Of a stretch of 32,000 nucleotides of DNA, positions 1,735 through 28,473 are shown in pieces. Position 1 is the first letter of the stretch. The number at the start of each line of letters is the position of its first letter. Position numbers and translations under genes: made by a program. This DNA comes from Acaryochloris marina MBIC11017 (GTDB lineage: Bacteria; Cyanobacteriota; Cyanobacteriia; Thermosynechococcales; Thermosynechococcaceae): NCBI RefSeq assembly GCF_000018105.1, contig NC_009927.1, positions 324,088-356,087 on the forward strand, written 5' to 3'. Below the pieces are notes generated by a model. It saw only the letters and a program-made list of their open reading frames with translations, had not been told where the DNA came from and made no database searches.

Positions 1735-3420
1735 CTATTTTGCCAGTATGTCATTCAATGCTGAAATCGCAGGCGCAAACAAATACTCTCCACCAGTCGG
1801 CACAACAAAATCTTGTTGGGTTTTAATTTCAGTCGTCTGGTGTTCACCGGGGAACTCGATATGCCGTTCTCTATTCCCTGTCGATCCGTTCTGGCCTATG
1901 ACCATGTCGTGCCCACCTTGATTTGGCTGAATTGCTGAGTTCGCCCAACGTCGTTGTAAAAACTCAAACTGATCTTCAATACTTGAGTTATAACAAACAA
2001 ACATTAAACCTCTGTCTAGCAGTAAGTCCTCATCGCTTAAATCTGGATTGCCAGCGATCGCTGGTCCATAAGGTATGCCGCGGCGCAAGATCATTCTAGC
2101 TAAGTTATCTTCTGGCTTTCCTAAATCGGTAACACTTTCTCTCGGATTGACTTTTCTAATGTGCGCGAAATGAGGGCAAACTTTGGCGAGAAAATCAGCT
2201 TTCGCCTGTGGAAACGAGTCTCCTGGATAATGGCTATCACTGAACTCAATTTCGCTTGTGTTGTCGTCAAATAGAAAATGATTGTTTGCAAACGCGTTTT
2301 TACCAAGCTCAGGCAATTCACTGTTAGGGCTTCGCATCAATGGAGCACCACTAGGCCAGCGACCAACCAAACGAGAGGCAAACTCTATTACGTCAATGTT
2401 TAATGATTCCGCAGTGCTACTAACAAACCCCCAAAACGCGGACACATCTTGATGTAAGCGTCTTACTACCACGTAAGAGCCAAGCTTTGCCCAGCCGGGA
2501 ATATTTGTCTGGATTCGCCCTTTAAGATATAAGTGTTCAGTGCTTTGACGTGGCTCTCCTAAAAGAAACTGACCTGGCCAAACCAATAACTGCCCTGGCT
2601 TGGCAAAATAATCTTTGCGTTCGTCGGTACCAGCCACATAACGTGGGGTGATAAAATCGCCAGGGCGTTCAGACAGTTTTCCCCGTATTCCCGGCTGCGA
2701 AATGCCATCTTTAAAGCCAAAATGTTCGTGGCCTCTAAACTTGCCTGGTAACCGCTCCCCTGGTTGTTCATATTGCAACTCGATGCCCTGATCTTGCGCA
2801 TGTTGTTTTATCAATGCCACAAATTCTTGCAACTGATCTTTGGAGTTCGCAGCGGTCGTGATCATCATGTCGATCTCATTATTGGTACCACCAAAACGCC
2901 AATTCGATTGATGGCCAGGACTAGATTCATCGCTAGGATCACCTAAGAAAGTTGACCTTTTGGCCATTCCCAAACGAAAACTGTCATCACCAAATTTATT
3001 GGCTTCTTCATCCGAGGTTAGTTTTGCTATGCCCGTGTATGAAAATGACAAATTCAACCAAGCTGACGACAAATAAGTTTCCCTTTGACCCAGTTGAGCT
3101 CGGCGTTGCCGATGTATTTTTCGAAACTTTAAAACTTCATAAGCGCTGGATATAGATACATAGGGGGAAATTAAACGCAAGAATTGTTTAGGAGAGCTGC
3201 CAACTCCAAAACTTAAAAACAAAAAGTGCTCATAATTGGTATTAAACCCGAGCAGTAAGTTTCCTTGTATATCTGACAGTGTGGCTTCGTTGTAAATAGG
3301 TTCGTCAGCCGATTGATCGTATGGACTGGGCTCAGGTTTATGCTCTAGCGGTGTATCGTCAATATTTGCTTCAATAGTTGAAAATAAGTCTTTTAGTTCC
3401 GTGAAATTAGCGTTGTCCAT
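1735..3420 (-). CDS. Dye-decolorizing (DyP-type) heme peroxidase, long form (561 aa)
   Basis: The DyP signature GxxDG lies in HFGFKDGISQPGIRG. The proximal-His block is FAHIRKVNPRE and the distal-Arg block is ILRRGIPYG. No Tat or signal peptide and no obvious encapsulin-targeting tail. A GGAGAA Shine-Dalgarno (SD) lies ~9 nt upstream of the ATG. Confidence 0.9.
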   Translation of the reverse strand: MDNANFTELKDLFSTIEANIDDTPLEHKPEPSPYDQSADEPIYNEATLSDIQGNLLLGFNTNYEHFLFLSFGVGSSPKQFLRLISPYVSISSAYEVLKFRKIHRQRRAQLGQRETYLSSAWLNLSFSYTGIAKLTSDEEANKFGDDSFRLGMAKRSTFLGDPSDESSPGHQSNWRFGGTNNEIDMMITTAANSKDQLQEFVALIKQHAQDQGIELQYEQPGERLPGKFRGHEHFGFKDGISQPGIRGKLSERPGDFITPRYVAGTDERKDYFAKPGQLLVWPGQFLLGEPRQSTEHLYLKGRIQTNIPGWAKLGSYVVVRRLHQDVSAFWGFVSSTAESLNIDVIEFASRLVGRWPSGAPLMRSPNSELPELGKNAFANNHFLFDDNTSEIEFSDSHYPGDSFPQAKADFLAKVCPHFAHIRKVNPRESVTDLGKPEDNLARMILRRGIPYGPAIAGNPDLSDEDLLLDRGLMFVCYNSSIEDQFEFLQRRWANSAIQPNQGGHDMVIGQNGSTGNRERHIEFPGEHQTTEIKTQQDFVVPTGGEYLFAPAISALNDILAK

Positions 3421-3424
3421 CTTT

Positions 3425-4411
3425 TTAATTCTCCTGCCCTTTTTGGGTACCTGCTGAGCCCACTATGCCGACCGTAATGTGCTCGGCTAGCTGTGCGCCA
3501 TACTGAATTTCATGGCCGCCAATGGTCAAGTCACTTACTTGAAAACCTAAAGCTTTAGGAACGGAATACTCCAAACGCATAACCTTGCCATTGGAACCTC
3601 TCTTGGGTTGCCACCACTCAATAGGGGCAGGTGAGCCGTCCGGCTGAGCGATTCCACTGTTGTCCCAACCAAAAATATAAATGCCAATAGGTTCTTGAAG
3701 GCTGACGTATAATTTTTTGCGCAATAGCATGTGGACGTCGTAATCGACTCTTGGATCGACCGATGTCGTATATGTTGCAAAAGCTGGGTTAGCCTGATAG
3801 TTGTTGGCAGCATCAAGCGGGAACATGCTCATTTCTTCTGCCAGGCCAATAGCAGCGCCGAGAGTATTAATGTCTTGAGTGAAATGCATTATGCCGTCAG
3901 TTGTGTTCCAGCGATTTAGAATATCATAGTCGCCATTTCCATTCATTAGGTCATCTTTTTTAACTGGTTTATCTAGGGTGTCTTTATAAATTTCAACGAC
4001 TTTATCAGGATCGAATTTCCACATCTCTTCATAGTAGTTGTGCAGCTCAGTGGTAAAAGTAATCCTTGTAATGGCGTCATCGTCTTTATGGACATACCAT
4101 TCAAAATATTCGTCTTGCTCATGCCCTCTATCTTTTCGGTTCGCATTGTCTGCAGTTCTATATGCTTCCCATTTGTTGTCTCGTAAGTTTGGCAATAAGA
4201 CCCTTCTTGGAAATCCCATCCAGCTAATGGTTTTTTCTCCAATGATATCGACATCCACCTCAGCTGGATTATAAAAATGCCCCCCATTGGGGCCTGGAGT
4301 CTCTTCTGCGATAAGGCCTTTTACAAATTCATGCCATTTTTCATAGAAATCACTATCGTCATCAAAATCTTTAATAGACGCAGGTGTGTCAAATTGAGTA
4401 ATCAGAGACAT
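3425..4411 (-). CDS. Hypothetical acidic 328-aa protein, translationally coupled to the downstream DyP peroxidase
   Basis: A long ORF whose stop lies 4 nt before the DyP start codon, and the DyP SD sits inside its last codons. I recognise no family motif (it contains EQDEYFEWYV and TRITFTTELHNYY blocks). No signal peptide. Confidence 0.7.
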   Translation of the reverse strand: MSLITQFDTPASIKDFDDDSDFYEKWHEFVKGLIAEETPGPNGGHFYNPAEVDVDIIGEKTISWMGFPRRVLLPNLRDNKWEAYRTADNANRKDRGHEQDEYFEWYVHKDDDAITRITFTTELHNYYEEMWKFDPDKVVEIYKDTLDKPVKKDDLMNGNGDYDILNRWNTTDGIMHFTQDINTLGAAIGLAEEMSMFPLDAANNYQANPAFATYTTSVDPRVDYDVHMLLRKKLYVSLQEPIGIYIFGWDNSGIAQPDGSPAPIEWWQPKRGSNGKVMRLEYSVPKALGFQVSDLTIGGHEIQYGAQLAEHITVGIVGSAGTQKGQEN

Positions 4412-5017: not shown

Positions 5018-8000
5018 TTAGTTTTCAACTGCCCCCAATGCCAATAGTGTGTGTTTTTGAGCTGGGGATAAACCTTTCATCTGAGTAATGTTCATGCCTG
5101 CATAGGGCTTAGTGGGTCTTAGTGTTCTTATACACTCACCAGTTTGAACATGCCAAAGTTTTATAGTTCCGTCAAAACTGCTACTAATAAGACGCTGACC
5201 ATCAGAACTAAAGGCTACTGAGGTGACACCATTTGTATGCCCCTCTAAGATTGCCAAATGCTTATGTGTTTCAACATCCCAACATCTAATCGTATGGTCT
5301 AAACTTGCAGTGGCAAGTAGTTGACCATTTGGACTAAAGGCAACATCCCAAATTTGACCTGAATGTCCTTCAAAAATACATATACAATCGTTAGTCTTAA
5401 AGTCCCAAAGTCTAGCTGTTTGATCAACACTCCCACTAGCGATAAAGTGCTCATTTGGGCTAAATGAGACGGAACTCACCCCCGATGAATGCCCTTTCAG
5501 AGTGTTTAAACACCTACCTTCTTGGATATCCCAAAGCTTAACAGTGCGATCAAAACTTCCACTCGCTAGTATTTCAGCATTCGGACTAAATGAGACAGAC
5601 CAGACCCAATGGCCATGTCCCTGAAATGTCTCCAAACATTCGCCGCTATGGATATCCCAAAGTTTGGCAGATTGATCTAACCCACTACTAGCAAGGAATT
5701 TTCCTTTCGGGTGAAATGCCAGTGACCAAATTCCATTAGAATGCCCTTTTAAGATCTTGATGCACTGCCCATTAGAAATATTCCAAAGTCTTATGGTTCG
5801 ATCACCTGTTCCACCCCCACTAGCAATGATTTGGTCATGAGGGCAATAAGCGACGGATCTGATAGCATCTGTATGCCCTGGAAAGTCTAAGCAATTGTGG
5901 TCTGAAAGTGACCAGACCCTTAGGACTTGGGCATCACCACCACTAACAAGAATCTGTTCATGTTGCTTCTCTGTTTCGGAATAGTTAAATGAACCGAAGG
6001 GAGTAGTTGCAAAAATGGCTTCAAATATGGTGAAAGTACATCCCGATAATGTTCTCAAGCATCTGCCTTTATTGTAATCCCATAGCCTAATGGAACCATC
6101 TTGGCTACTACTAGCCATAATTTTTTGAGTAGGATTTATGGCCACAGACCAAACCCAATTTGTATGCCCCAATAAAGTTTTTAAACATTTTCCAGTTCTA
6201 ATGTCCCAAATTTTTATCAGTTGATCTGCGCTACCACTAGCAAGGTAATGACCAGAGGAACATAATGCAATCGAGCGTATAGAATTTGAGTGTCCAAACA
6301 ACTTCTGTATACATTCACCACTCTGTAGATTCCATACCCTGATAATTGGATCATCGCAGGCACTCACGAGCATTTGTCCATCAGGACTGTACGCGATTGA
6401 CCAGACCCATCCAGCATGACCAGCCAATACTTTCAGGCATTGGCCGCTCTTAACCTCCCAAATCCGAATGGTTTGGTCAGCATATCCACACGCTAGTTCA
6501 TGATTATCAGGACTAAAGGCAATTGATCGGGCTGCTGCCCGGTATCTGAAGCTCTTCAAAAATTGCCCTGTTTGACTATTCCACAGCCTAACAGTGAAGT
6601 CATCACTACAACTTGCAAGGAGTGTACCGTCGGGACTGAATGCTACTTCCCAGATGAAATTAGTATGTCCCGATAAAAGTTTTAAACATTCTCCAGTACG
6701 TACGTTCCAAAGCCTAACAGTCTGGTCTGGGCCAGCACTGGCCAGCAGATGATTGGTCGGACTGAAGGCCAAAGATTTGACCCAGTTTGTATGTCCGCTA
6801 CAAGTTAAGAGGGGTTGCCCATCAGGAACTCGAAGAAGACGAATCTCGCCTTTAAAATCTCCAGCGGCAATGAGCTTGCCATCTGGGGAGAAAGCAATCG
6901 ATAGGATACCTCCAAAATCCTTGGAAAAGACTGACTGAGATAGATCTGAGTGAGTGAACTTAACCCCATGCAAGTTGAGTCCTCGTAGATCAGCTTGCCG
7001 AATTGTGAGGTGAGAAAAGTCGTAACCACAGAAATCTACAGGTAACTGTCGGAGCAAATTCAGAACATTTCCTGCGACATAACCTGCTTCTTCCGACGAT
7101 TTTCCCCGCACCACTGAAAGGAGTTGAACCAAGCAGGCTTCAAGGTGTGCTCTACTGCCTAGGACCTTTACCAGGCTAACAATTAAGGGTTGCAAGATCA
7201 GGCGAATCTGAGTGTCTTTGATATAGTCTTTCGCCTGTGCCTTTATGAGTGCATGAGTACGGAACAGATGCAATTGATTTTCCTGTCTTTCCTCATACTG
7301 TTGTTGCTCCTGAATCTCGGTACAAATTTGCTGAATGAATTTGTGGGCTGTGAACTCCATCACCACAGGTTGTTGGGTGAATCCAGTCTCAGTTTGGTCA
7401 ACCAAAGATCGACGTTGCAGCGAGGTTATCGACTGCAACAGGTCACCTGGGAGAACTTGAACCATCAAATCGAGGGCCAATTGCTCTAACTGGGCAGGCT
7501 CGCGATTAATGGTGAGCCAATACATTACAGCCTGTTCTATCTCTGATAGCCTTTCAAACTGCTTGTTGAGGAGGTCGTAGATATCCTCAAGAACGAATGG
7601 CTCCATCTGTGAGAAGCTGAGGAAACGAGAAAGACTTCCTTCAAAGCATTCTTTAATGGTTGATGACACAATTTTTAGAGCTAAGGGATTACCCGCATAG
7701 TGCTTGTTTATAGCGGACCACTCTTTTTCCGTTCCTGTGAATATGCCCTTAGTTTTAACCAAGGTCTGACAAGCATTAGTTGATAACCCTTTCAACTGCA
7801 AGCATCGAACTGGCAGGGAGTCTCCCTCCATCGCTGCAATTCCTTGTGGTTTTTCCCGAGCGGTCACCAAAACACAACTGCTGTGGGTAGCTTCTCCAAA
7901 CATTTCAAAGAGCTTGGCATAGTCTTCACAACCGGATCTATAGCGACCTGTGCGATCACCACTTTGCAATAAGGACTCTGCGTTATCTAAAATCACTAGA

Positions 8001-8824
8001 CAACGTGAGGTGCGCAGATAACTCAGAAGTAGCGAAATTTGAGATTCTATTCCCTTGGGTAAATAGTTTTCTTGTTGATTCGAGAGAAACTGGATGAGGT
8101 CAGACAAGATTTCTGTAATAGGTGGGGCACTCGCAAGACTGCGCCAAATTACAAAATCGAAGTCGTATTGGACTTTTTGAGCAAGTTGTATGGTTAGCGC
8201 TGTTTTACCCATACCTCCCATTCCGAGTACCACTATGAAACGGCAGTGTTCATCGACCAACCACTGGCTCAAAAGGGTCAGCTCAGTTTTGCGTCCATAG
8301 AACCAGGAGACATCAATAGCACTCCCCCAGTCTCGATTTCTTGTATCTAATTGGAGATCTGGATTAGCTAGGAACGAATTGACTGGTAACGCACTCGATT
8401 TCTGGTCTGTGGCCTGTTTAGACTTGAATGGCCGACGTTGCTCCCATTCCTCATCAAATTGTTTTAAATTGGCAACTTTATTGTGTCGCTTATACCAAAA
8501 GTTGAGCGTAAAATGCCATTTATTAGAGCCTTTAGGTTGAGAACGATTGTCTGTGAGAATATCTACAAACTGTTCTAGGAGTTTGAGTGATATCTTGATT
8601 TGGTCTTTACTTAGCTCTCTATTAGATGGATATTTTTTACTTAGCTCAGCTAAATCTTTAATAGTAGTTTCTACGACTAACTGTTGGTCTGTTTGCCAAT
8701 TTACCAGTATTTGAGAACGGAGTCGATCTTGTATTTCGAATTCATCATTGGCATAGGCCAGTATAACCTCTAGAAGAAATTTGGTCCTTTTTCTTGGGGT
8801 AGGGCCATAGCTTACTCTTGCCAT
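5018..8824 (-). CDS. STAND NTPase (NB-ARC/NACHT-like P-loop) with an unassigned N-terminal domain, a pentapeptide-like linker and 14 WD40 repeats
   Basis: Walker A GMGGMGKT is at aa 201-208 (nt 8201-8224). Walker B is CLVILDNAE. A helical arm follows. The stretch FSHLTIRQADLRGLNLHGVKFTHSDLSQSVF is pentapeptide-like. I counted 14 GH...WD/WN units by hand, enough for two 7-bladed propellers. Confidence 0.9.
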   Translation of the reverse strand: MARVSYGPTPRKRTKFLLEVILAYANDEFEIQDRLRSQILVNWQTDQQLVVETTIKDLAELSKKYPSNRELSKDQIKISLKLLEQFVDILTDNRSQPKGSNKWHFTLNFWYKRHNKVANLKQFDEEWEQRRPFKSKQATDQKSSALPVNSFLANPDLQLDTRNRDWGSAIDVSWFYGRKTELTLLSQWLVDEHCRFIVVLGMGGMGKTALTIQLAQKVQYDFDFVIWRSLASAPPITEILSDLIQFLSNQQENYLPKGIESQISLLLSYLRTSRCLVILDNAESLLQSGDRTGRYRSGCEDYAKLFEMFGEATHSSCVLVTAREKPQGIAAMEGDSLPVRCLQLKGLSTNACQTLVKTKGIFTGTEKEWSAINKHYAGNPLALKIVSSTIKECFEGSLSRFLSFSQMEPFVLEDIYDLLNKQFERLSEIEQAVMYWLTINREPAQLEQLALDLMVQVLPGDLLQSITSLQRRSLVDQTETGFTQQPVVMEFTAHKFIQQICTEIQEQQQYEERQENQLHLFRTHALIKAQAKDYIKDTQIRLILQPLIVSLVKVLGSRAHLEACLVQLLSVVRGKSSEEAGYVAGNVLNLLRQLPVDFCGYDFSHLTIRQADLRGLNLHGVKFTHSDLSQSVFSKDFGGILSIAFSPDGKLIAAGDFKGEIRLLRVPDGQPLLTCSGHTNWVKSLAFSPTNHLLASAGPDQTVRLWNVRTGECLKLLSGHTNFIWEVAFSPDGTLLASCSDDFTVRLWNSQTGQFLKSFRYRAAARSIAFSPDNHELACGYADQTIRIWEVKSGQCLKVLAGHAGWVWSIAYSPDGQMLVSACDDPIIRVWNLQSGECIQKLFGHSNSIRSIALCSSGHYLASGSADQLIKIWDIRTGKCLKTLLGHTNWVWSVAINPTQKIMASSSQDGSIRLWDYNKGRCLRTLSGCTFTIFEAIFATTPFGSFNYSETEKQHEQILVSGGDAQVLRVWSLSDHNCLDFPGHTDAIRSVAYCPHDQIIASGGGTGDRTIRLWNISNGQCIKILKGHSNGIWSLAFHPKGKFLASSGLDQSAKLWDIHSGECLETFQGHGHWVWSVSFSPNAEILASGSFDRTVKLWDIQEGRCLNTLKGHSSGVSSVSFSPNEHFIASGSVDQTARLWDFKTNDCICIFEGHSGQIWDVAFSPNGQLLATASLDHTIRCWDVETHKHLAILEGHTNGVTSVAFSSDGQRLISSSFDGTIKLWHVQTGECIRTLRPTKPYAGMNITQMKGLSPAQKHTLLALGAVEN
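5135..6919 (-). repeat. Array of 14 WD40 repeat units (~126-nt period) inside the STAND NTPase gene
   Basis: Recurrent GH(T/S)N.(V/I).S(V/L)AFSPDG..LAS.S.D.T(I/V)(R/K)LW(D/N) units in the translation. Coordinates are converted from aa ~636-1230. Confidence 0.85.
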
Positions 8825-8917
8825 AATTGGACCTCAAGCAAATCTATGTATTTTTTTTCTTACCTCAAGTATTTATCAGTGATTTGCACGGTATTTACGC
8901 AAGGAGTTCTAGCATCC

Positions 8918-9150
8918 TAAATAAAAAAATAGTTAGGGTATCCCTTAACTTTGATACCTACCCTTAACTTTCAAAGGCTTGATTTATAAAGGATTTAAGG
9001 TAGAAAGTTTACTTCTTGCTTGGTGTCAGTTTTCTCGCCTAGTTTGAAAGCATGAAACCTCAAAGAACTAACTGCATATCAATCAGTAGGAAGTTAAAGA
9101 TATTCTAATATATCTGAACAGCAAAGTATAAAATGCGAACTCATTAAATT
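8918..9150 (+). repeat. Copy A of a ~220-bp conserved non-coding module, upstream of ORF133 and divergent from the STAND NTPase gene
   Basis: It hand-aligns with 11043-11280 at roughly three quarters identity. Shared blocks include gttag, acctaccc(t/c)taactttcaa, taaggta, acttcttgc, ttgaaag.atgaa, aaaga.ctaact.catat, tatatctgaa and aatgc.aactc. The small ORF inside it is not conserved (18 codons in A, 3 codons in B), so the conservation is not coding. Confidence 0.65.
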
Positions 9151-9272
9151 GATAACCCATGAGCATTTTATGAGTAAAATGCTCAAAAGCTATTTCAATT
9201 CTTTTAAGTATTTTATTCTGAAATATATGCAAATACTAGCTTCAATGAGAAAAGAAAAAATGGAGAAATATA

Positions 9273-9674
9273 ATGCCGATACTTAGTGATTTCACGACTA
9301 TCGTTGGCAATCAAAGAATACTTATTGGTGATAATTCCAATAGTAGTGGTTTCACATCAAACTTTAGGACTGCAGAGAGAAGAAGCGATCGAAATGCATT
9401 CATCTCTTTCATGGTAAGAGGTATGACTCAAACAGACGAAAATGCTGAAGTCTTTGTTAATGATATACGAATTGGAAGTCTAGAGAATAACAATGGAGGT
9501 AATATAAATCTATGGCATACACAGTCAATAACACTCTCTGGGGATCGCTTAAATGACGGAGAAAATACCTTAAGAGTAGACACTGTACCAATAGCTCCTG
9601 GCACCCAAGGAGTTGGAAATTTTGATGATTTTTTTATAACGAATGTGATTTGTCATTTTCATCAAGATTCCTAG
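9273..9674 (+). CDS. Hypothetical 133-aa protein, probably an all-beta fold
   Basis: ORF with a GGAGA SD 6 nt upstream of the ATG. Preceded by repeat module A. Contains EVFVNDIRIGSL...WHTQSITLSGDRLNDGENTLRV, which is reminiscent of jelly-roll/lectin-like strands but is not assignable by eye. Confidence 0.6.
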   Translation: MPILSDFTTIVGNQRILIGDNSNSSGFTSNFRTAERRSDRNAFISFMVRGMTQTDENAEVFVNDIRIGSLENNNGGNINLWHTQSITLSGDRLNDGENTLRVDTVPIAPGTQGVGNFDDFFITNVICHFHQDS

Positions 9675-10166
9675 AAATAAGCTTGTTAGTTCGGATTTTG
9701 TGAGAAGTTTGCTAAACTCTTTTCTTCATAAATATTCTGAAACAGGTAGAGTCTATGATGCTCCCACTCTTGATCATCATTGAACTTCCTAGTTAAGGAT
9801 GTAAAGCTATTTACCTTCTTGTAACTAATGAGGTAAATCATTAGAAACTAATCGCCAAAGGAATTATATTCCGAGATTATCTGGACAGACTTATAGCTTA
9901 ATACTCTAGAACTCTTTTCTTCTTGATTTACTAATTGTTATGAATTTTATGTATTTTAAGAGGATTGATGGCACAACTTTTTGCGCAATATTAGCAGCTA
10001 ATTCTAGCACAATATTAGCAACCAACTAGAGCGCAGAGTGAGATACACTTTGCTTTTCTAATGTTCTACAGGGTAGGAATAATAGACTAAGTTGAGAAAA
10101 CTATGTATTCTTGGCACTTTGGCTGTCATTATGCGCAGACAAATAATTAACTATTAGGAGACAATC

Positions 10167-10523
10167 ATGACTAAGACTAAATCTATTTCGGATGCACATC
10201 AGCGCGTTTTTAAACTTGATGTGGAAGAAGTAATGAAGATCGTAAAACGTGGTAAACCCTTGACAGCCGATGAACTCGAAAAGTACGGACCTGATGAATT
10301 CTATTTAGCCGATCAGGTACCTGAAGAGCCTGCTTTGCATAGGAATATTCCGTTACCCGCTGAAGTAGGTGACCGTATTTTCCCAAATGTGGTCTTAGTA
10401 AGTCCATTCTTCTGCTGGTGTTCAAGCTATACATGGTGTCTCGAAATTGATGAATTTGGGCGATTACGTTATGTGTTGAAGTGCAATTACTGGTGCATTC
10501 CGCAGTTCCAAGTTTCGGCATAG
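10167..10523 (+). CDS. Hypothetical 118-aa protein with a hydrophilic N-terminal part and a Cys/Trp-rich C-terminal 40 aa
   Basis: AGGAG SD 6 nt upstream of the ATG. C-terminal tail is VSPFFCWCSSYTWCLEIDEFGRLRYVLKCNYWCIPQFQVSA, with Cys at aa 83, 85, 91, 106 and 110 and Trp at aa 84, 90 and 109. Confidence 0.6.
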   Translation: MTKTKSISDAHQRVFKLDVEEVMKIVKRGKPLTADELEKYGPDEFYLADQVPEEPALHRNIPLPAEVGDRIFPNVVLVSPFFCWCSSYTWCLEIDEFGRLRYVLKCNYWCIPQFQVSA

Positions 10524-10777
10524 AATTTTGGGGCTACATGATTAAGCGGAAATATTATTATTCCTTTATGATTTTGATGTAGTCCTGAAAATCATTTCCT
10601 AAACTTTAGACCCTGAAAAAATCGATTGATAGCTATGGATTATTTGCCTTCCTGTTGCTCTATTAGATACTGGTCTCTTAAGAGGATCTAGATTACCGTA
10701 ACCCTTGCGCAATAAACATTTGAATCTTCTCTCGTTATTTACTTTTAATCCCACATAACTAAATGATTTTGACCGCT

Positions 10778-10990
10778 CTAGATCCTGGTAATAGACCAGT
10801 GCCTAATGGGTAACTCTTTCTGCTGACACCCCAGATACAGAAACTTCAAAATGTAGTTGAATATCTTGAACAGAAAGAGCTTAAGCTGAGGCCCTCTAGT
10901 TCCGATGTGTAGATGTGGCAAGGCAAATGTTTCAAACTGCTCTAGGGTCAAGCAGGTTGGAATCCATTGATTGGAATGGGTTTGGGTATC
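10778..10990 (-). pseudogene. Relic of an IS5-family (DUF4096-type N-terminus) transposase, N-terminal ~70 codons only
   Basis: My minus-strand translation reads RADTQTHSNQWIPTCLTLEQFETFALPHLHIGTRGPQLKLFLFKIFNYILKFLYLGCQQKELPIRHWSITRI*. This matches the remembered consensus LT.EQF..FVLPHL..G.RGP...L.KIFNYILK.LYTGCQWK.LPI. There is no Met, the frame is bounded by stops, and the conserved W is replaced (QWK becomes QQK). Confidence 0.55.
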
Positions 10991-11042
10991 TGCCCTCTAA
11001 ACGAACGTCAAACTAAAAGACTGAACTCATTTTAGTTAATAT

Positions 11043-11280
11043 CTCAAATTAAAAAAGTTAGAGGAACCTCTATCTTTGAAACCTACCCCTAACTTTCAAC
11101 ATCTTAATTTAAAAGGGTTCTAAGGTAAGGAAACTACTTCTTGCGTAGTGATAGTTTCCTTAACTACCTTGAAAGTATGAAGTCTTAAAGAGCTAACTTC
11201 ATATAAACCCAGTAACAGCATAAATTTATTCAGATATATCTGAATAAAATAGCAGTGGCAATGCAAACTCTATCCAATTT
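11043..11280 (+). repeat. Copy B of the ~220-bp conserved non-coding module, upstream of the PatA/PatG-family protease
   Basis: See copy A. It also contains an 11-bp hairpin stem (11126-11136 pairing with 11152-11162) and a perfect 24-bp palindrome at 11225-11248. Confidence 0.65.
11225..11248. promoter_or_regulatory. Perfect 24-bp palindrome TTTATTCAGATATATCTGAATAAA, a candidate dimeric-regulator operator ~85 nt upstream of the protease ATG
   Basis: The reverse complement of the first 12 nt equals the last 12 nt exactly. The equivalent position in copy A (about 9098-9117, tattctaatatatctgaaca) keeps the right half-site TATCTGAA, but the left half is degenerate. Confidence 0.4.
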
Positions 11281-11332
11281 CAGCCTTGTTTGAGAGTGTA
11301 ATGTTTCGATTACAGCTTTGAGGTTATCTGTT

Positions 11333-13294
11333 ATGACCAGTGCCATTAACACTAAACCTATTTTAATAGCAGGTCTATCTGATCTTTGGGTAGAAACTAT
11401 TGGAGATCCTCAGATTAGTATTGCTATTTTAGATGGTTTCGTAGATCAATCTCACCCTAGTCTTGCTGAAGCTAAACTTACAAATTTAGAAACTATTGCC
11501 TTAAAGGCTTCCCAGCAAGGTTCAGCAGCTCAACATGGTACCCAAATTGCAAGTATTATCTTTGGTCAGCATCAAAGTTTACTCAAGGGTATTGCTCCCC
11601 AATGTCGAGGTTTGGTGATTCCTATCTTTGCTGACGGGAATCAGCAGGCAATAGATAACAATAAGTTCTCAGAGACCATTGCCCCTTGCTCCCAACTAGA
11701 TCTTGCCAGAGCTATTCTTTTAGCGGCAAATCAAGGTGCCCATATTATTAACATCAGTGGTGGACAGCTCACGCCTAGTGGAGCGGCAGATCCGATTCTC
11801 ACTAATGCTGTTCGCTATTGTATGGAGAACAACATCCTGATTGTGGCAGCAGCAGGAAATGAAGGATGCAACTGTCTGCATGTACCTGGCGCTCTACCAT
11901 CTGTTCTGGTAGTAGGTGCAATGAGTGCTACAGGAACCCCCTTAAATTTTAGCAATTGGGGTGAAGCTTACCGGACTCAAGGAGTCTTGGCATTGGGTGA
12001 AAATATCCCCGGAGCTGTTCTTGGTGGAGGAATTACATCCAGTAGTGGAACTAGCTATGCCACAGCGATCGTTTCTGGCATAGCAGCATTACTGCTGAGC
12101 CTGCAAGTCAAACGAGGGCAGACTCCCAATCCTCAAGCAATTCGAACCGCTATTTTGCAGAGCGCACTTCCCTGCGATGATCGGCCTGCTCTAGAATGTC
12201 GCCGTTTTTTAGCAGGCCGCCTCAATGTAAAAGAAGCGCTGTCCATCATTTTACAAAAAGGAGAAACTATGAGTGAAAATATAGACGTAGAAACGGTACA
12301 ACCTGACTCTAATGGAGCTGTGCAGGCAGCGCTGTCATCAAATCAATCCCAGATTCCGGCTGTTCAGGCAGCGACGTATAATCCTCCCCCTACTGAGGTA
12401 ATGCCTCATCCCGCACAAGCGCAAATAAGTTTATTAACTCAGGTAAGTCCAAGTGCCATTTCTCCATCTGCATGTAGTTGTGGAGAGGGAGGTAAAACAT
12501 CATCACAAGCACCTAGTCAAGCACAGCTAGTTTATGCTCTGGGACAGCTAGGGTATGACTTTGGTACGGAAGCACGCCAAGATTCGATTCAGGAACACAT
12601 GGGCGAAGGAGCTAATCCTCACGATCCTCGACAATTTTTACCATACCTAGATGAAAATCCTTGGGATGCAGCTATGGTCGTCTGGACGCTTAGTTTAGAT
12701 GCCACACCAATCTACGCAATTCAACCTTTTGGAGCTTATGCCGAACAAGGATATGAGCGATTGCGACAGTTTCTTAAGGAGCAATTAGAAGAGGGTGTTG
12801 AACGTATTTCGGCTCCTGGTGTCATCGTAGGACAAGTAACGTTGATGTCTGGTCAAACTGTGCCTGTGATTCTGCCAACACTTCGCTGCATGTATAGCTG
12901 GACGACATCAGCATTGATTAAAACAGTTTGTGGTGAGTCTCCTGATGAGTCTGCCGTTCAAGGGGTAACCAACTTCTTGGAAAGAGTTTATTACGAGCTG
13001 AGAAATCTAGGAATAATGCCTCAAGAAAGAGCGATCAATTATGCAGCAACAAATGCTTTAAATATCGAGCGCATTTTTGAGGCAGCCATTCTAGAAGAGA
13101 TGGATCTCGATTCAATTGAAGTGGAACCGAGTCCCCTCTGTCGTCAGGACTCTGAGTGCTGGGATGTGAAACTGACGTTTTTCAATCCCAGGCGAGTGTT
13201 CGAACAAGCTAGAAAAGTTTATCGCTTCACAGTTGATGTGAGTGATATGTGTCCGGTGAGTGTGGGGAGAGTGAGATCGTGGTTTGTGAGGTAA
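11333..13294 (+). CDS. PatA/PatG-family cyanobactin-type maturation protease: an N-terminal subtilisin (S8) domain plus the C-terminal PatA/PatG DUF domain
   Basis: Catalytic triad blocks are AILDGFVDQSHP (Asp), AAQHGTQIASIIFGQH (His) and SGTSYATAIVSGIAALLLS (Ser). After a P/A/Q/S-rich linker comes LVYALGQLGYDFGTEARQDSIQEHM...WTLSLDATPIYAIQP...ERISAPGVIVGQVTLMSGQTVPVI, which closely resembles the PatA/PatG C-terminal domain as I remember it. The track ORF starts at TTG 11318, but ATG 11333 is more likely. Confidence 0.85.
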   Translation: MTSAINTKPILIAGLSDLWVETIGDPQISIAILDGFVDQSHPSLAEAKLTNLETIALKASQQGSAAQHGTQIASIIFGQHQSLLKGIAPQCRGLVIPIFADGNQQAIDNNKFSETIAPCSQLDLARAILLAANQGAHIINISGGQLTPSGAADPILTNAVRYCMENNILIVAAAGNEGCNCLHVPGALPSVLVVGAMSATGTPLNFSNWGEAYRTQGVLALGENIPGAVLGGGITSSSGTSYATAIVSGIAALLLSLQVKRGQTPNPQAIRTAILQSALPCDDRPALECRRFLAGRLNVKEALSIILQKGETMSENIDVETVQPDSNGAVQAALSSNQSQIPAVQAATYNPPPTEVMPHPAQAQISLLTQVSPSAISPSACSCGEGGKTSSQAPSQAQLVYALGQLGYDFGTEARQDSIQEHMGEGANPHDPRQFLPYLDENPWDAAMVVWTLSLDATPIYAIQPFGAYAEQGYERLRQFLKEQLEEGVERISAPGVIVGQVTLMSGQTVPVILPTLRCMYSWTTSALIKTVCGESPDESAVQGVTNFLERVYYELRNLGIMPQERAINYAATNALNIERIFEAAILEEMDLDSIEVEPSPLCRQDSECWDVKLTFFNPRRVFEQARKVYRFTVDVSDMCPVSVGRVRSWFVR

Positions 13295-13363
13295 CTAACT
13301 TCACTGCTGTAATGGTTTCTTGAATCAAGATTACTCAATTTATAGTTTTAGGAGAATAACAAG

Positions 13364-13552
13364 ATGAGAATTCCAAACCAGTCTATTGGTCAGATACGTT
13401 CTAACCCTGCAATAGAGAAAACCGCTGTCTCAGGAGGTGTACAGCCTTCTGGCCCCGGTTTGGGAAGGCTTTGTAACGAAATTTGCCGTTCTCCAGGAGG
13501 AGGAGGGGTTTGTCCTTTGTGTGAATTTCTCTCACTCGTACCTGGTTTCTAA
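13364..13552 (+). CDS. 62-aa Cys-rich small ORF, a candidate precursor or secreted peptide
   Basis: AGGAG at 13350-13354, 9 nt before the ATG. Sequence is MRIPNQSIGQIRSNPAIEKTAVSGG/VQPSGPGLGRLCNEICRSPGGGGVCPLCEFLSLVPGF, with a CxxxC...CxxC pattern. A perfect terminator hairpin follows ~20 nt after the stop. It starts 69 nt after the protease stop. Confidence 0.5.
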   Translation: MRIPNQSIGQIRSNPAIEKTAVSGGVQPSGPGLGRLCNEICRSPGGGGVCPLCEFLSLVPGF

Positions 13553-13573
13553 GGTAAAACTTGATCAACGGTG

Positions 13574-13605
13574 ATGTTTTGGGTGAGAGGATTCACCCAA
13601 AACAT
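13574..13605 (+). terminator. Strong stem-loop (13-bp perfect stem, 6-nt loop) closing the protease/small-ORF unit
   Basis: atgttttgggtga (13574-13586), gaggat loop, tcacccaaaacat (13593-13605). The downstream sequence is only weakly T-rich (ttctcgcaactgatttcggattttt), so it may act as an intrinsic terminator or as an RNA-stabilising hairpin. Confidence 0.55.
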
Positions 13606-13861
13606 TCTCGCAACTGATTTCGGATTTTTATATGGTTAACCTGAAATATTGGCTGTTAATGAAAAAACCCGAATCACAACACATCACTTTCTTCCTCTAA
13701 AACCTCAAACCGTCTTGTTTGAATTCCATTAAAAGAGGATGCACTACCTACAACTCGCTATCGACTGAACAGCCTTATAGAAAGGGATATAAACTCTTTC
13801 AGCAAGCCCATGCCATGAATATTTTGATTAGACGATATCTTATTACCGAAAGGAAAATACC

Positions 13862-14401
13862 ATGAGCAACGAACTTTTTATCAAAGGTCCTCACGTCCCG
13901 ATTGAGGAACGTGCGCTGGAACGATTAAAGCGTGCAGTGGAACTGGGTGAACTTGAAAAACTACCGAATACTCCGGGTATTCCCAACGTGCCGCGCTACC
14001 TGGTCACGTATATGAACTCACAAACTGTGAATACTCAGATGCGCTCAGCCACGGTCGTATCCGTGACCAACCAGAGTAATTTAATCAATCGAGTATTTGT
14101 TACATTCTTTAAGGGTTTCACGGACGACTCATCACCGATCGGAACTGCAGCGTTTGCTATCCCACCACAGTTCACGGTAGATTTTGCATCACGAAGCCTA
14201 CCCAGTGAATTGACGGTTACAAATGCTGTTCCAAATCCAGAATTAACTTTCGACGAGGGTCGTGCAATTGTATCGTCGATGTGGCCGGAAATTGGCGTGA
14301 GCGCACGTGTCTACTACACGGCTGGTGACAATGATGAGCGCCTACATGCCATCACCGACTCAAAAGTAGTCATTTATAGTAGAAGCAATAGCGGAGACTG
14401 A
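13862..14401 (+). CDS. Hypothetical 179-aa protein with codon usage unlike its neighbours
   Basis: ORF with a weak AAGGA SD. Many CCG/ACG/GCG/CGT/CTG codons, unlike the A/T-ending codons of the adjacent cassette genes. No recognisable motif. Confidence 0.6.
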   Translation: MSNELFIKGPHVPIEERALERLKRAVELGELEKLPNTPGIPNVPRYLVTYMNSQTVNTQMRSATVVSVTNQSNLINRVFVTFFKGFTDDSSPIGTAAFAIPPQFTVDFASRSLPSELTVTNAVPNPELTFDEGRAIVSSMWPEIGVSARVYYTAGDNDERLHAITDSKVVIYSRSNSGD

Positions 14402-14745
14402 CTACAGGGTCTAAGGATAACGAAGGCACCAAAAACGGCAAGGCAGCAATTTTGAGTTGTTCAATCTAGTAGAGGTAGATTCCCTGCTGCTTCCAGTGAA
14501 AAAATGGGATTACAATCCAAGTCTACGGTTTGGGAGCAAATCGTATTCCATACCCCGTCTGCTTGCAGCGGGGCAGTTGATTGACTTTTCCTTAGTAGAG
14601 GATATCTGCATGACCCCCAACTCGTCTCACTGAAGCCCAAACCACCAGCCGCCCCCCGCTGAAACCCTCGACGAACACCAGCACAACCATCACATACCCG
14701 GATAAGGTATCATTTCCGACCATCGCTCGAAACGATGATCTGCCA

Positions 14746-15228
14746 GTGAAGCGCAAGGTAGCTCCAGAGCCTGGAGACGATGATCGCAACCCCGAACCTA
14801 CCCTCAGATACAGCCGCAGAGAATCCACCGACACCCAGAGAACACAGCGAGGGTATTCAGCTCGGCATACAACTAGTAGAACCCGACCCCCCAGAGTCTC
14901 CAGAGCATTTGAGTCCAAGTTCAATGCCCTTGAGCGCAGACAGAAGAATTTGGTTCAGCAGACCAAGCAAAAGGGTCAGCTTGAGTATCTGACCGTTTCC
15001 AAAAGCAGCTCAGGGAATTATTGGATCACCATCGAAGGTAGTGGTAAGCCATTCATCAAAATTTCGTTTGAAACGCCCGAGTTTTGCTTCGAGTGCGCTT
15101 TGGAGCTAGAGAATACGTTCGACGTGTTGCAGGTTTTAAGACTGCGGCCAGGGGAAACTATCGAGCGGATCGAGGAAATGATCGGGGTGTGGTTGGAGCG
15201 GGAGAGGGGGAGTAGGGCTTGGGGATGA
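14746..15228 (+). CDS. Hypothetical protein; the start is uncertain (GTG), and the C-terminal ~70 aa is conserved in a downstream truncated paralog
   Basis: The C-terminal block GSGKPFIKISFETPEFCFECALELENTFDVLQVLRLRPGETIERIEEMIGVWLERERGSRAWG recurs at 15690-15908. The N-terminal R/T/P-rich part is GC-rich and open in several frames, so the true start is unclear. Confidence 0.45.
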   Translation: MKRKVAPEPGDDDRNPEPTLRYSRRESTDTQRTQRGYSARHTTSRTRPPRVSRAFESKFNALERRQKNLVQQTKQKGQLEYLTVSKSSSGNYWITIEGSGKPFIKISFETPEFCFECALELENTFDVLQVLRLRPGETIERIEEMIGVWLERERGSRAWG

Positions 15229-15689: not shown

Positions 15690-15908
15690 TTTACAGCTAT
15701 TGCCAGAAACATAGTAGGCAGTGGAAAGCCGCTCATCAGAATTCCGTTTGAAAGTCCTGAATTCTACTTTGAGTGTGCGTTGGAATTGGAGGATACTTTC
15801 GATGTGTTGCAGGTAATTGAGCTGCGGCCAGGGGAAACTATTGAGCGGATTGAGGAGATGATCGGGGTGTGGTTGGATCGGGAGCGGGTGAGTAGGGTTT
15901 GGGGGTGA
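15690..15908 (+). pseudogene. Truncated paralog (C-terminal 72 codons, no start codon) of the 14746-15228 gene
   Basis: My translation reads FTAIARNIVGSGKPLIRIPFESPEFYFECALELEDTFDVLQVIELRPGETIERIEEMIGVWLDRERVSRVWG*. It is bounded upstream by TAA at 15687-15689 and has no ATG/GTG/TTG. The track's minus-strand ORF 15672-15956 is its antisense shadow. Confidence 0.55.
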
Positions 15909-18823: not shown

Positions 18824-19636
18824 TTAATTGAAGTTCTCCTCCATCCACTGAACCCCAAATTGGGTTAGAGACTGAGCATCCAATAGGTACGATTTTGCCC
18901 CGCCGACCTTTCCTGTCTGAGCAGGGTGGGTAGCCAAATAATCTTTGACGATAGTCTCGAAGTAGTTGTCTGGCCAGTCCACAATCCCATTAGTCGTATC
19001 AAATTCTTCAAAGTCCATCCACACCCGTTTACCATTCTGGAGTATGGGCATTCGGTAGCGATCAATCCACTTATTAGGCACATCAGCCAAATGCTCAGCA
19101 TGGTGGAGCAGGGTGACGTCACCAATAGGTGAACCCAGCAGAAGCACAGAGCCACTCACCTCACAGAGTTTTGCTAGCGGTGAACCCGGACCATCCCGAT
19201 ATTGCCAAGGCTGTTCGGCTGTGATCCATTGAGCAAGTTCACCCACCGCGACGTATGAGAACGGATGACGGCTCCTATGCGCACCTGGCCAAGTTCGGAG
19301 ATATTCGGTGAGAATTCCCATTTCTCTCCAATCGGCACGAGACCGAGACGGATCATAGGCTGGGCATTCACACAGATAGGCTTCTTGCCTGTGTTTGGGC
19401 CATCGGGACAAATCGTAGGGATTATCTTCCCAGCTTGCCATCATCATTAAAGTGCCAGCGTCTGTTAGGAGTGACAGAATAGCTGCCAGCACAACATCTG
19501 GTCCACCCACAACCCATCCAATATTCCGAACAGAGGAATGAAGCATGATCGTCTGCTTCTTACAGACTCCTAATTTCCTGAGATCTTGAATCAACTGGCT
19601 CTTAGTAATGAGCTGTTTCTTCTTCATGTGGCTCAT
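18824..19636 (-). CDS. Aminoglycoside N(3)-acetyltransferase, AAC(3) family
   Basis: Strong resemblance along the whole length to AAC(3)-II/VI-type enzymes as I remember them: IMLHSSVRNIGWVVGGPDVV, AGTLMMMASWED, YLRTWPGAHRSRHP, SPLAKL, VTLLHHAEHLA and GKVGGAKSYLLDAQSLTQFGVQWME. Confidence 0.88.
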   Translation of the reverse strand: MSHMKKKQLITKSQLIQDLRKLGVCKKQTIMLHSSVRNIGWVVGGPDVVLAAILSLLTDAGTLMMMASWEDNPYDLSRWPKHRQEAYLCECPAYDPSRSRADWREMGILTEYLRTWPGAHRSRHPFSYVAVGELAQWITAEQPWQYRDGPGSPLAKLCEVSGSVLLLGSPIGDVTLLHHAEHLADVPNKWIDRYRMPILQNGKRVWMDFEEFDTTNGIVDWPDNYFETIVKDYLATHPAQTGKVGGAKSYLLDAQSLTQFGVQWMEENFN

Positions 19637-27399: not shown

Positions 27400-28473
27400 T
27401 TAAGATGCATCAACTTCCTCTGTATCAGCCGGTTCTATCTCAACGGTCGTGATGGAATTTGCAGAAACTTTGGAGCCTAACTCCAGCTTTTGGCGTACTT
27501 GTTGTTCAACCTCTTGGGAAAACTCTGGGTTATCCAGAAAGTAATGAATGGTATTCTCCCGACCCTGGCCTATATTGCTACCGTCATAGCTATACCAAGC
27601 TCCTTTGCGGACAATGATATCTGTTTCCTCCGCCATATCGACCAGACAACCCATGGTTGAGATCCCCTGGCCAAACAGGATGTCAAACTCCGCAATCCGA
27701 AACGGAGGTGCAACCTTATTCTTGGCAACCTTGACCTTTGCGCGGATGCCATACATATCGGTGCCTTTCTTCAGGGTCTGAATTCGACGAATATCCAAGC
27801 GAACGGAGGCATAGAACTTGAGGGCGTTACCTCCCGTGGTCACCTCTGGACTGCCATAGGTGACTCCAATCTTCTGTCGCAGTTGGTTCAGGAAAATGAC
27901 GGTGCTACCTGACTTGGCAATATTGCTTGTAATCTTACGCAGCGCTTGACTCATCAACCGAGCTTGCAACCCCATATGGGAATCTCCCATATCTCCCTCA
28001 ATCTCAGCTCTGGGAGTAAGAGCAGCAACGGAATCGACCACAACGAGATCCACCGCACTTGAACGAACGAGTTGATCCACAATTTCTAAAGCCATCTCAC
28101 CTGAATCAGGCTGGCTTACAAGCAGCTCTGATATATCCACACCCAATGCTGCTGCATAAACTGGATCAAGGGCATGTTCAGCGTCAACAAAGGCAGCGAC
28201 TCCACCCGTCTTTTGGATCTGAGAAATCGCATGCAGGGCTACGGTGGTTTTCCCCGAACTCTCAGGTCCATAGATTTCAATGACGCGTCCTCTAGGAAGA
28301 CCACCTCCTAGCGCTAGGTCTAGAGTCAATGCCCCACTAGAGTTGGTCTCGATCTGCATACGAGTGGCATCACCCAATCGCATGATGGCCCCTTTGCCAA
28401 ACGTCTTTTCAACGTTTTTCATCACCAAGTCGAGGGCCTTTTGCTTCTCAGTCATTTCATTTTTGGCACTCAT
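27400..28473 (-). CDS. recA: Recombinase RecA
   Basis: Canonical [47 protein letters not shown] and [38 protein letters not shown] blocks. Confidence 0.97.

Follow-up and report, generated by a model that had tools for sequence, protein, structure and literature searches.

A stretch of 32,000 nucleotides from the cyanobacterium Acaryochloris marina MBIC11017 (contig NC_009927.1, positions 324,088 to 356,087 of the forward strand; hereafter the window, with positions counted from its first nucleotide) contains a plus-strand gene for a PatA-type protease with a C-terminal domain of unknown function (DUF) at 11333–13294. It is followed on the same strand by an open reading frame (ORF) for a 62-residue precursor-like peptide (ORF62, 13364–13552), which is absent from the RefSeq annotation. 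Comparison with related loci in other genomes makes it fairly probable that these two genes form a cyanobactin-type module on an A. marina plasmid that consists of an A protease and an E precursor only. Three further ORFs (ORF133, ORF118 and ORF179) and a duplicated non-coding module in the vicinity are probably neighbours and not components. As far as the sequences tell, the locus looks like the proteolytic first step of a cyanobactin pathway standing alone.

In the favoured mechanism, the protease would recognise the site GVQPS in ORF62, and a predicted cut after Ser29 would remove a leader of 29 residues and release a linear peptide of 33 residues. The four cysteines of this peptide (CX3C-X8-CX2C) would then form two disulfides or one metal site. 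Heterocyclisation, prenylation and macrocyclisation would not follow: neither heterocycles nor prenyl groups nor a macrocycle are expected, because no tailoring enzyme is encoded at the locus and ORF62 has neither an RSI nor an RSIII element. A role as a secreted antimicrobial or signalling peptide would be a guess. A preliminary description, made from the letters of the window, had proposed a pathway different from cyanobactin biosynthesis, which does not agree with the leader box and the cleavage motif of ORF62, both being of the cyanobactin type.

The protease and its candidate precursor

The assignment of the protease to the PatA/PatG family, already made in the preliminary description, was borne out by a score of 829.5 bits for the family profile TIGR03895 (cut-off 421.05), which was covered from position 1 to 606 of 606, and by the Pfam domains Peptidase_S8, PatG_D (PF18047, E 9e-13) and PatG_C (PF18065, E 8e-46). 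The C-terminal DUF matches entry 4uvq of the Protein Data Bank (PDB) with E 4.5e-59. For the catalytic domain, the best PDB matches were PagA (4h6w, E 1e-98) and PatA (4h6v and 3zxx, down to E 1e-93), whereas the macrocyclases PatG and PagG matched the N-terminal domain at 1e-46 only. Residue numbers are counted here from TTG 11318, the start of the longest ORF, which gives 658 amino acids; the NCBI version has 653 amino acids and begins at ATG 11333, which is more likely the true start. The catalytic triad D39, H73 and S246 is invariant in an alignment of 18 diverse relatives and aligns to the PagA and PatA structures. The Asp and His residues are spaced by 34 residues, as in most A-type relatives. 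In the alignment to PagG (4h6x), query residues 17–45 fall on chain residues 17–45 and query residues 71–137 on chain residues 107–164, and the query lacks the 36 extra residues by which PagG separates its catalytic Asp and His, the helix-loop-helix 'capping' insert of macrocyclases. The enzyme is an A-type, that is N-terminal, protease and not a macrocyclase of the PatG type. Compared to PagA and PatA, it carries a 13-residue insertion GNQQAIDNNKFSETI at residues 108–122 (11639–11683), ahead of the conserved CSQLDL, where PagG likewise shows a loop of about this length.

YcaO, PatG and PatF were not found in the window by Pfam and NCBIfam scans of its ORFs. Exact protein matches link the window to A. 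marina MBIC11017 (ABW32109, ABW32111 and ABW32115). The region is 99.9% identical to plasmid pREC1 (393 kb, conjugative) of A. marina MBIC10699, an ascidian isolate, and the pREC1 gene table holds no cyanobactin enzyme within 20 kb on either side. A second gene of the PatA/PatG family is absent from the window, from the same 20-kb flanks on pREC1 and from the MBIC10699 plasmids. The preliminary description had noted that canonical cyanobactin machinery is lacking from the 32 kb, which was correct for YcaO, PatG and PatF, and no full cluster lies within the 20-kb flanks on pREC1. Its further statement that PatB is lacking is debatable, because ORF62, although without a match to the PatB model TIGR04220, holds the position of patB and shares the N-terminal box of PatB.

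ORF62 starts 70 nt past the protease stop codon and is preceded by a Shine-Dalgarno sequence AGGAG (13350–13354, plus strand), read from the sequence 9 nt 5' of the start codon. Its product can be parsed, on the plus strand throughout, into MRI, the leader box PNQSIGQIR (residues 4–12; 13373–13399), the stretch SNPAIEKTAVSG, the predicted recognition site GVQPS (residues 25–29; 13436–13450) and the predicted core GPGLGRLCNEICRSPGGGGVCPLCEFLSLVPGF of 33 amino acids with its four cysteines (13451–13549). The box was delimited in an alignment of 53–79 family peptides and the site by motif enrichment in the family, with the cut predicted after S29. The gap between box and GVQPS comprises 12 residues and contains no RSI (LAELSEEAL-like) element, and ORF62 ends in ...SLVPGF without a C-terminal RSIII (AYDG or FAGDDAE). 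The computed monoisotopic mass of the core is 3303.60 Da in the reduced form and 3299.57 Da with two disulfides. Peptides encoded beside the closely related proteases of Mastigocladopsis (L003) and Komarekiella (L009) have a CX3C-X8-CX3C pattern at the same place as the cysteines of ORF62.

To avoid circularity, A. marina sequences were left out when the hidden Markov model (HMM) of the leader was rebuilt. With this model, ORF62 was the sole match (E 9e-7) among 719 six-frame ORFs of the window, the next-best ORF reaching E 0.86. A protein search with ORF62 returned only ORF62 itself; the word index of this search is blind to a box of only nine residues, and gene calling seldom includes ORFs of this kind. 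ORF62 is also not in the RefSeq annotation of pREC1 and is called in Logan assemblies only.

A 12-bp hairpin (13575–13604, plus strand) lies 22 nt 3' of the ORF62 stop codon. Its minimum free energy is -26.4 kcal/mol (z = -3.6), and none of 200 shuffled sequences folded as well. It has no adjacent U-run and was not called by the terminator scan, but it may mark where the transcript ends, or stabilise a protease-ORF62 unit. Hairpin and the subsequent gap of 310 nt between ORF62 and ORF179 would be consistent with a transcription unit of protease and ORF62.

Pairing in other genomes and kinship with cyanobactin components

Relatives of the protease are numerous and widely distributed. A protein search yielded 3,403 proteins, and at least 538 loci were found among species-representative genomes with an alignment as query, whereas a query of genome contigs with the single protease gave no related loci. 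The relatives occur in cyanobacteria, Acidobacteriota, Planctomycetota, Proteobacteria, Chloroflexota, Nitrospira and two archaeal metagenome-assembled genomes (MAGs). For comparison, 80 protease loci and two more from exact look-ups were combined to a set of 82 loci (~1.2 Mb), many of which, including both archaeal ones, are MAG contigs.

The first clue to a partner gene came from a 72-residue ORF located 70 nt past the Mastigocladopsis protease and a 107-residue ORF past the Symploca protease, both of which begin with M[RK]IPNQS like ORF62 and then diverge into cysteine-rich tails. Six-frame translations of the loci were searched by regular expression and then by HMMs. On the protease strand and up to 3 kb downstream, leader-HMM matches (E < 0.01) were present in at least 50 of the 82 loci, with only three matches anywhere else in the ~1.2 Mb. 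The preliminary description had proposed to look for small ORFs conserved beside proteases in other genomes, and for ORF62 such conservation was indeed observed. Clustering of the neighbouring ORFs revealed no other broadly conserved gene beside the proteases; in subsets of the loci, genes belonging to classical or linear cyanobactin clusters are present (prenyltransferase, LamG-like or methyltransferase). Large neighbour 'families' in this clustering turned out to be antisense ORFs inside the protease gene and were discarded. On a plasmid of the cultured strain Gloeocapsa PCC 7428, a box-bearing peptide is encoded in the gap after the protease and is missing from the gene table of the plasmid.

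In a neighbour-joining tree computed for 86 proteases, separate clades were formed by G proteases and by the A proteases from classical clusters, and the methyltransferase-linked 'linear' type (L049, L062, L074 and L082) was a separate sister group. The large remaining clade spans several phyla and comprises A-only proteases linked to cysteine-rich peptides. The window protease nests there in a cyanobacterial subclade together with relatives of 70–75% identity. By this comparison, the pairing of a protease with a small cysteine-rich, precursor-like ORF recurs across many bacterial phyla and in the two archaeal MAGs without the remaining cyanobactin machinery.

The peptide family was analysed with 79 unique peptides having at least three cysteines. 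They start with M[KR][LIF]P-x-Q-x-x-P-V-x-R, the box taking the form PNQSxGQ[IM]R in the cyanobacterial subclade of the window. A motif G[VIL]x[PA][SQ] follows 9–14 residues past the box in 37 of the 79 peptides (shuffled sequences: mean 0.7, maximum 5), and many of the others contain a relaxed [VIL]xP[SQ]. The motif agrees with the published cleavage consensus of PatA-type proteases, G(L/V)E(A/P)S (PMC10885120). A conserved leader is followed by a hypervariable core; column identity in the peptide alignment averages 13%, and the median core length is 43 residues. Cysteine accounts for 13% of core residues versus 0.5% of leader residues, and 73 of 78 cores have an even number of cysteines (p 1.5e-16), which argues for paired cysteines in disulfides or metal sites. 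The loci hold one to four box-bearing genes each. With a conserved leader and a variable core encoded beside a processing enzyme, these peptides correspond to precursors of peptides made on the ribosome and modified after translation (RiPPs), in the general sense.

Some cores recur in distant hosts. A near-identical motif NCIPNC[LI]CV..CPCC[DE]SLF follows the protease in Leptolyngbya, in Caldora and in an Acidobacteriaceae MAG (L010 10495–10734, L006 4164–4448 and L016 9993–10382), and a second motif, GIACxICxxGCxALPEPARxxCxxACxxTVC, is common to Mesorhizobium, Bryobacteraceae and gammaproteobacterial loci. Such recurrence would fit a transfer of peptide types between phyla.

None of 53 family peptides reached any Pfam or NCBIfam cut-off. 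The only recurrent matches below threshold were to the precursor models TIGR03678 (nine peptides) and TIGR04446 (three) and to the PatB model TIGR04220 (three); ORF62 itself matched neither of the two precursor models at E <= 0.1. Profile-profile alignment with hhalign related the family leader to canonical E precursors (probability 79.5%, E 1.5e-5, 24 columns) and to the N-terminus of PatB (95.7%, E 9e-9, 18 columns). Canonical precursors of classical clusters carry the same box with the same spacing, as in MTKKNIRPQQVAPVERE...PFAGDDAE and MDKKNLMPQAAQPVNR...LAELSEEAL...SYDGDEE. Canonical PatB begins with the box as well (MKLPKQSPPVKR), the PatB of L072 scoring 122 bits on TIGR04220 (cut-off 55), and PatB genes were located directly after patA in L053, L056, L063, L065, L067, L068, L072, L078–L080 and L083. 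The box common to PatB, precursors and cysteine-rich peptides suggests that PatB derives from precursors or competes with them. No mention of the similarity between PatB and the leader was found in the searchable full-text literature, which does not reach most subscription journals. The B and C proteins are conserved and non-essential, and their function is not known (PMC4663559).

With the pat, tru and acy pathways, the system shares the protease family (S8 plus DUF, with A-type active-site spacing), and with cyanobactin precursors the box spacing (PxQxxPVxR), the RSII-like G[VIL]x[PA][SQ], the hypervariable core and the frequent occurrence of multiple precursor genes. In contrast to these pathways, no PatG macrocyclase/oxidase, YcaO heterocyclase or prenyltransferase is encoded at the locus, the leader has no RSI and the C-terminus no RSIII. 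Cyanobactin cores have 3–20 residues, whereas the cores described here are long (median as above) and rich in cysteine, and the phyletic range is very broad and includes non-cyanobacteria and the two archaeal MAGs. Linear cyanobactins of the aeruginosamide and viridisamide type are likewise linear after cleavage by the A protease, as is predicted here. As reportedly described by Leikoski et al. in 2013 (see also PMC4663559), these are peptides of 3–5 residues made with a G-type protease without macrocyclase activity together with prenyl- and methyltransferases. The present locus differs by an A protease alone and a 33-residue cysteine-rich core. PatB, AcyB and McaB (TIGR04220) share the gene position after the A protease and the N-terminal box, but differ in their conserved C-terminal domain (HGANYNDP), and no cleavage motif was noticed when the listed sequences were inspected without a count.

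Two further likenesses are analogies only, without sequence relationship. Disulfide-rich bacteriocins can likewise have a short leader that is cut by a dedicated protease; in typical bacteriocin systems, however, the leader is of the double-glycine type and a C39 or ABC transporter is employed, none of which is present here. Plant alpha-hairpinins (CX3C-Xn-CX3C) show a similar CX3C...CX(2,3)C pairing. PatA-only systems with cysteine-rich precursors are not described in the searchable full-text literature, which is weak evidence as subscription journals are largely outside its reach. The protease-ORF62 system is thus apparently undescribed, and its substrate class and minimal architecture are unlike every cyanobactin genotype known to us, while the enzyme is a bona fide member of its family.

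Competing explanations and the surrounding genes

Several observations weigh against the two-gene module. ORF62 matches no curated family in Pfam or NCBIfam, its box departs from the family consensus by GQ in place of PV, and with four cysteines it stands at the bottom of the range seen in the family. The leader HMM detected no peptide in roughly one third of the 82 loci. The leader is closer to PatB than to E precursors by hhalign, and PatB is not known to be a substrate. No obvious N-terminal signal sequence is seen in ORF62 (judged by eye, no predictor run), and neighbour clustering revealed no conserved transporter or thiol-disulfide oxidoreductase near the proteases, leaving disulfide formation without an evident route. 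A modifying enzyme might also be encoded on the host chromosome and act in trans. Finally, no binding of PatE by the PatG DUF was seen in vitro by nuclear magnetic resonance (PMC4259220), and the C-terminal DUF was therefore demoted as a candidate reader of the leader box.

The main rival, though unlikely, is that ORF62 is a divergent accessory of the PatB type, for example a regulator or chaperone docking via the box, and that the true substrate is encoded elsewhere. ORF62 follows the A protease immediately, as patB does, the hhalign result given above is better for PatB than for E precursors, and intermediate peptides in L049, L062 and L074 weakly match TIGR04220 (E 5e-4). ORF62 itself, however, has no match to this model and has only the N-terminal box in common with PatB. 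Whereas the C-terminal domain of PatB is conserved, the ORF62 family is hypervariable, with up to four genes per locus and even cysteine numbers, and it has the RSII-like motif at a fixed distance from the box, which was not seen on inspecting the listed PatB sequences.

It is still less probable that protease and ORF62 are non-functional left-overs of a full cyanobactin cluster decaying after loss of D, F and G. Such a history would be in line with the insertion sequence (IS) fragment and the IS110 nearby, with the absence of other pathway genes at the locus and with the degenerate box of ORF62 compared to the family consensus. A decayed remnant is nevertheless unlikely, because the protease ORF runs uninterrupted over its full length, its triad being invariant, and because the layout of A protease and peptide only is conserved across phyla, being the rule in the large multi-phylum clade including the 70–75% identical cyanobacterial relatives. 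The near-identity of the region between two A. marina strains also speaks against decay.

The preliminary description had combined ORF133, ORF118, the protease, ORF62 and ORF179 to one co-regulated cassette with one or more possible substrates. The five ORFs are indeed present on the plus strand between 9273 and 14401 at the coordinates first reported, as are the Shine-Dalgarno sites of the small ORFs. ORF133 (9273–9674) is preceded by GGAGA 6 nt 5' of its start and ORF118 (10167–10523) by AGGAGA 5 nt 5' of its start, and ORF179 extends from 13862 to 14401. Same strand, close spacing, the conserved cysteines of ORF118 and a duplicated ~200-bp module before both ORF133 and the protease favour a common cassette. 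However, tblastn with ORF133, ORF118 and ORF179 found no relative in 80 protease loci, and the leader HMM detected no leader box in any of the three. The conservation of small ORFs beside orthologous proteases thus does not extend to them, and they are tied to the protease by proximity in one plasmid lineage only. Of the earlier suggestion that the protease processes neighbouring small proteins, the part concerning ORF62 is supported by leader box, site and pairing, while the part concerning the other three is not. The hairpin after ORF62, the distance to ORF179 and the IS fragment, which splits ORF118 from the protease, further separate the ORFs, so that a single five-gene unit appears very improbable.

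Individually, the three ORFs point in different directions. ORF179 has 583 homologues, 67–88% identical across Acidobacteriota, Actinomycetota, Nitriliruptorales and others, which is an unusual conservation for an uncharacterised stand-alone gene. It has no Pfam domain, and its homologues were found in three unrelated contexts, none with a PatA-type protease (homologues P0122–P0241; loci L086–L090), which also argues against the cassette; one of these contexts lies between two S8 peptidases and CHAT-TPR genes. An AlphaFold model of ORF179 (predicted local distance difference test, pLDDT, 80.5) shows a helix and a beta-sandwich with modest likeness to TM1070 and to the Anabaena sensory rhodopsin transducer (E 3.5e-5; TM-score 0.40 when normalised by query length and 0.57 by target length). 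For ORF118, 1.84 billion representatives contained only 12 related clusters. These share FP..FCFC.GY.WC...VLKC.Y.C, and by this motif ORF118 belongs to a genuine, though rare, family that lacks the leader box. For ORF133, no relatives were found apart from a sub-threshold match to DUF7383, and its single-sequence AlphaFold model was unusable (pLDDT 42).

The duplicated module is real. Copy A (8919–9118, plus strand) lies upstream of ORF133 and copy B (11046–11244, plus strand) directly upstream of the protease, its membership in the protease unit being uncertain; the copies share 203 aligned nt at 74% identity (blastn E 3e-28) and a 26-nt core motif with two occurrences versus zero expected. 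Common regulation, which the preliminary description had deduced from the duplication, was not supported. In a 7.3-Gb plasmid collection only these two copies were found, making the module specific to this plasmid lineage, and it was not found upstream of orthologous proteases. Promoter and terminator scans were at chance level, with no more promoter sites than in shuffled sequence. Rfam gave no match in the module or elsewhere in 8700–14600, and RNAalifold of the two module sequences found 4 of 35 pairs to be compensatory, too few for an RNA claim. Copy B contains a perfect 24-nt palindrome (11225–11248) centred on TTCAGATATATCTGAA, ~85 nt upstream of the ATG of the protease, which might act as an operator or fold into a hairpin. 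In copy A, the equivalent stretch (9099–9118) is degenerate.

The IS relic noted earlier inside the cassette was confirmed by DNA similarity as a transposase fragment of ~200 bp (~10805–11007) between ORF118 and module copy B. Transposase genes of other Acaryochloris plasmids share 77% identity with this fragment, which also weakly matches a Caballeronia IS5 transposase, while its short ORFs were not recognised by Pfam. Composition had been taken as evidence for horizontal acquisition of an AT-rich cassette. Only the part from roughly 8500 to 11500 is AT-rich, with a guanine-cytosine (GC) content of 0.33–0.39; from the protease to ORF179 it is 0.43–0.47, the same level as in the remaining window, and the argument fails for this part.

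Further genes of the window include ORF160 (14746–15228), the C-terminal third of which is repeated at protein level ~1 kb downstream in a 42-residue ORF (15780–15908). In pREC1, this second copy aligns at 81% identity across 64 residues. The repeat is a local duplication, in a region that had been called an 'IS scrapyard'. An AAC(3) aminoglycoside acetyltransferase (18824–19636), a class A penicillin-binding protein (22940–24877), a RecD2-type helicase (25071–27332) and a full-length recA (27400–28473) are chromosomal-type housekeeping genes which here are plasmid-borne. Adjacent and divergent to the ORFs of the locus lies a STAND NTPase gene (EAD4-NB-ARC-WD40, 5018–8824, minus strand), followed downstream on the same strand by genes for a DUF8225 protein and a DyP-type peroxidase (1735–4411).

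The least credible alternative, that the protease is an effector or partner of this STAND NTPase in a conflict or signalling system or the peptide a ligand of repeat-domain signalling proteins, draws on the divergent gene, on a NACHT protein near the Symploca homologue (L004 14694–17072), on subtilase matches in PADLOC and on Ser/Thr kinases fused to WD40/TPR repeats, or else AAA_35 proteins, beside the protease-peptide pair in ~14 of 82 loci (no background control), but no EAD4-bearing partner for the NTPase was seen among the window proteins, the PADLOC matches reflect generic S8 similarity, and repeat-domain signalling proteins are very common among cyanobacteria and planctomycetes and absent from most loci. 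The kinases with WD40/TPR occur in L019, L040, L060, L061, L064, L076 and L083 and the AAA_35 proteins in L036, L037, L044, L072, L075, L079 and L083; adjacency of large repeat-sensor proteins in roughly a fifth of the loci may be chance. A 'STAND' cluster that seemed to link the window to eight other loci was rejected, as it reflected WD40/TPR repeat similarity to Ser/Thr kinases and not shared NTPases.

Significance of the proposed protease-precursor pairs

On a wider reading, which is tentative and stands somewhat nearer to doubt than to belief, the pairs would constitute a large undescribed superfamily of leader-cleaved mini-proteins spanning cyanobacteria, Acidobacteriota, Planctomycetota, Proteobacteria, Chloroflexota and Thermoproteota. 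The pathways of classical cyanobactins would then have branched off from it as a specialised line, and PatB would be a fossil of the precursor lineage or a member put to another use. If true, this place of PatB would give a first handle on the roles of PatB and of the N-terminal box of the leader, and the box common to cysteine-rich peptides, PatE-type precursors and PatB opens these functions to direct experiments.

Public annotation and surveys of biosynthetic gene clusters stop at the label of a 'cyanobactin' protease, and the substrate genes are mostly uncalled, as seen for ORF62 and the Gloeocapsa peptide. A relative of the protease is present in at least 538 species-representative genomes, and the pool of cores is hypervariable and easily mined. 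If the pairing is functional, hundreds of genomes would encode a simple way of making disulfide-rich or metal-binding peptides from a precursor and a protease. For the window itself, the hypothesis of five genes gives way to a testable one of two genes with a predicted product mass.

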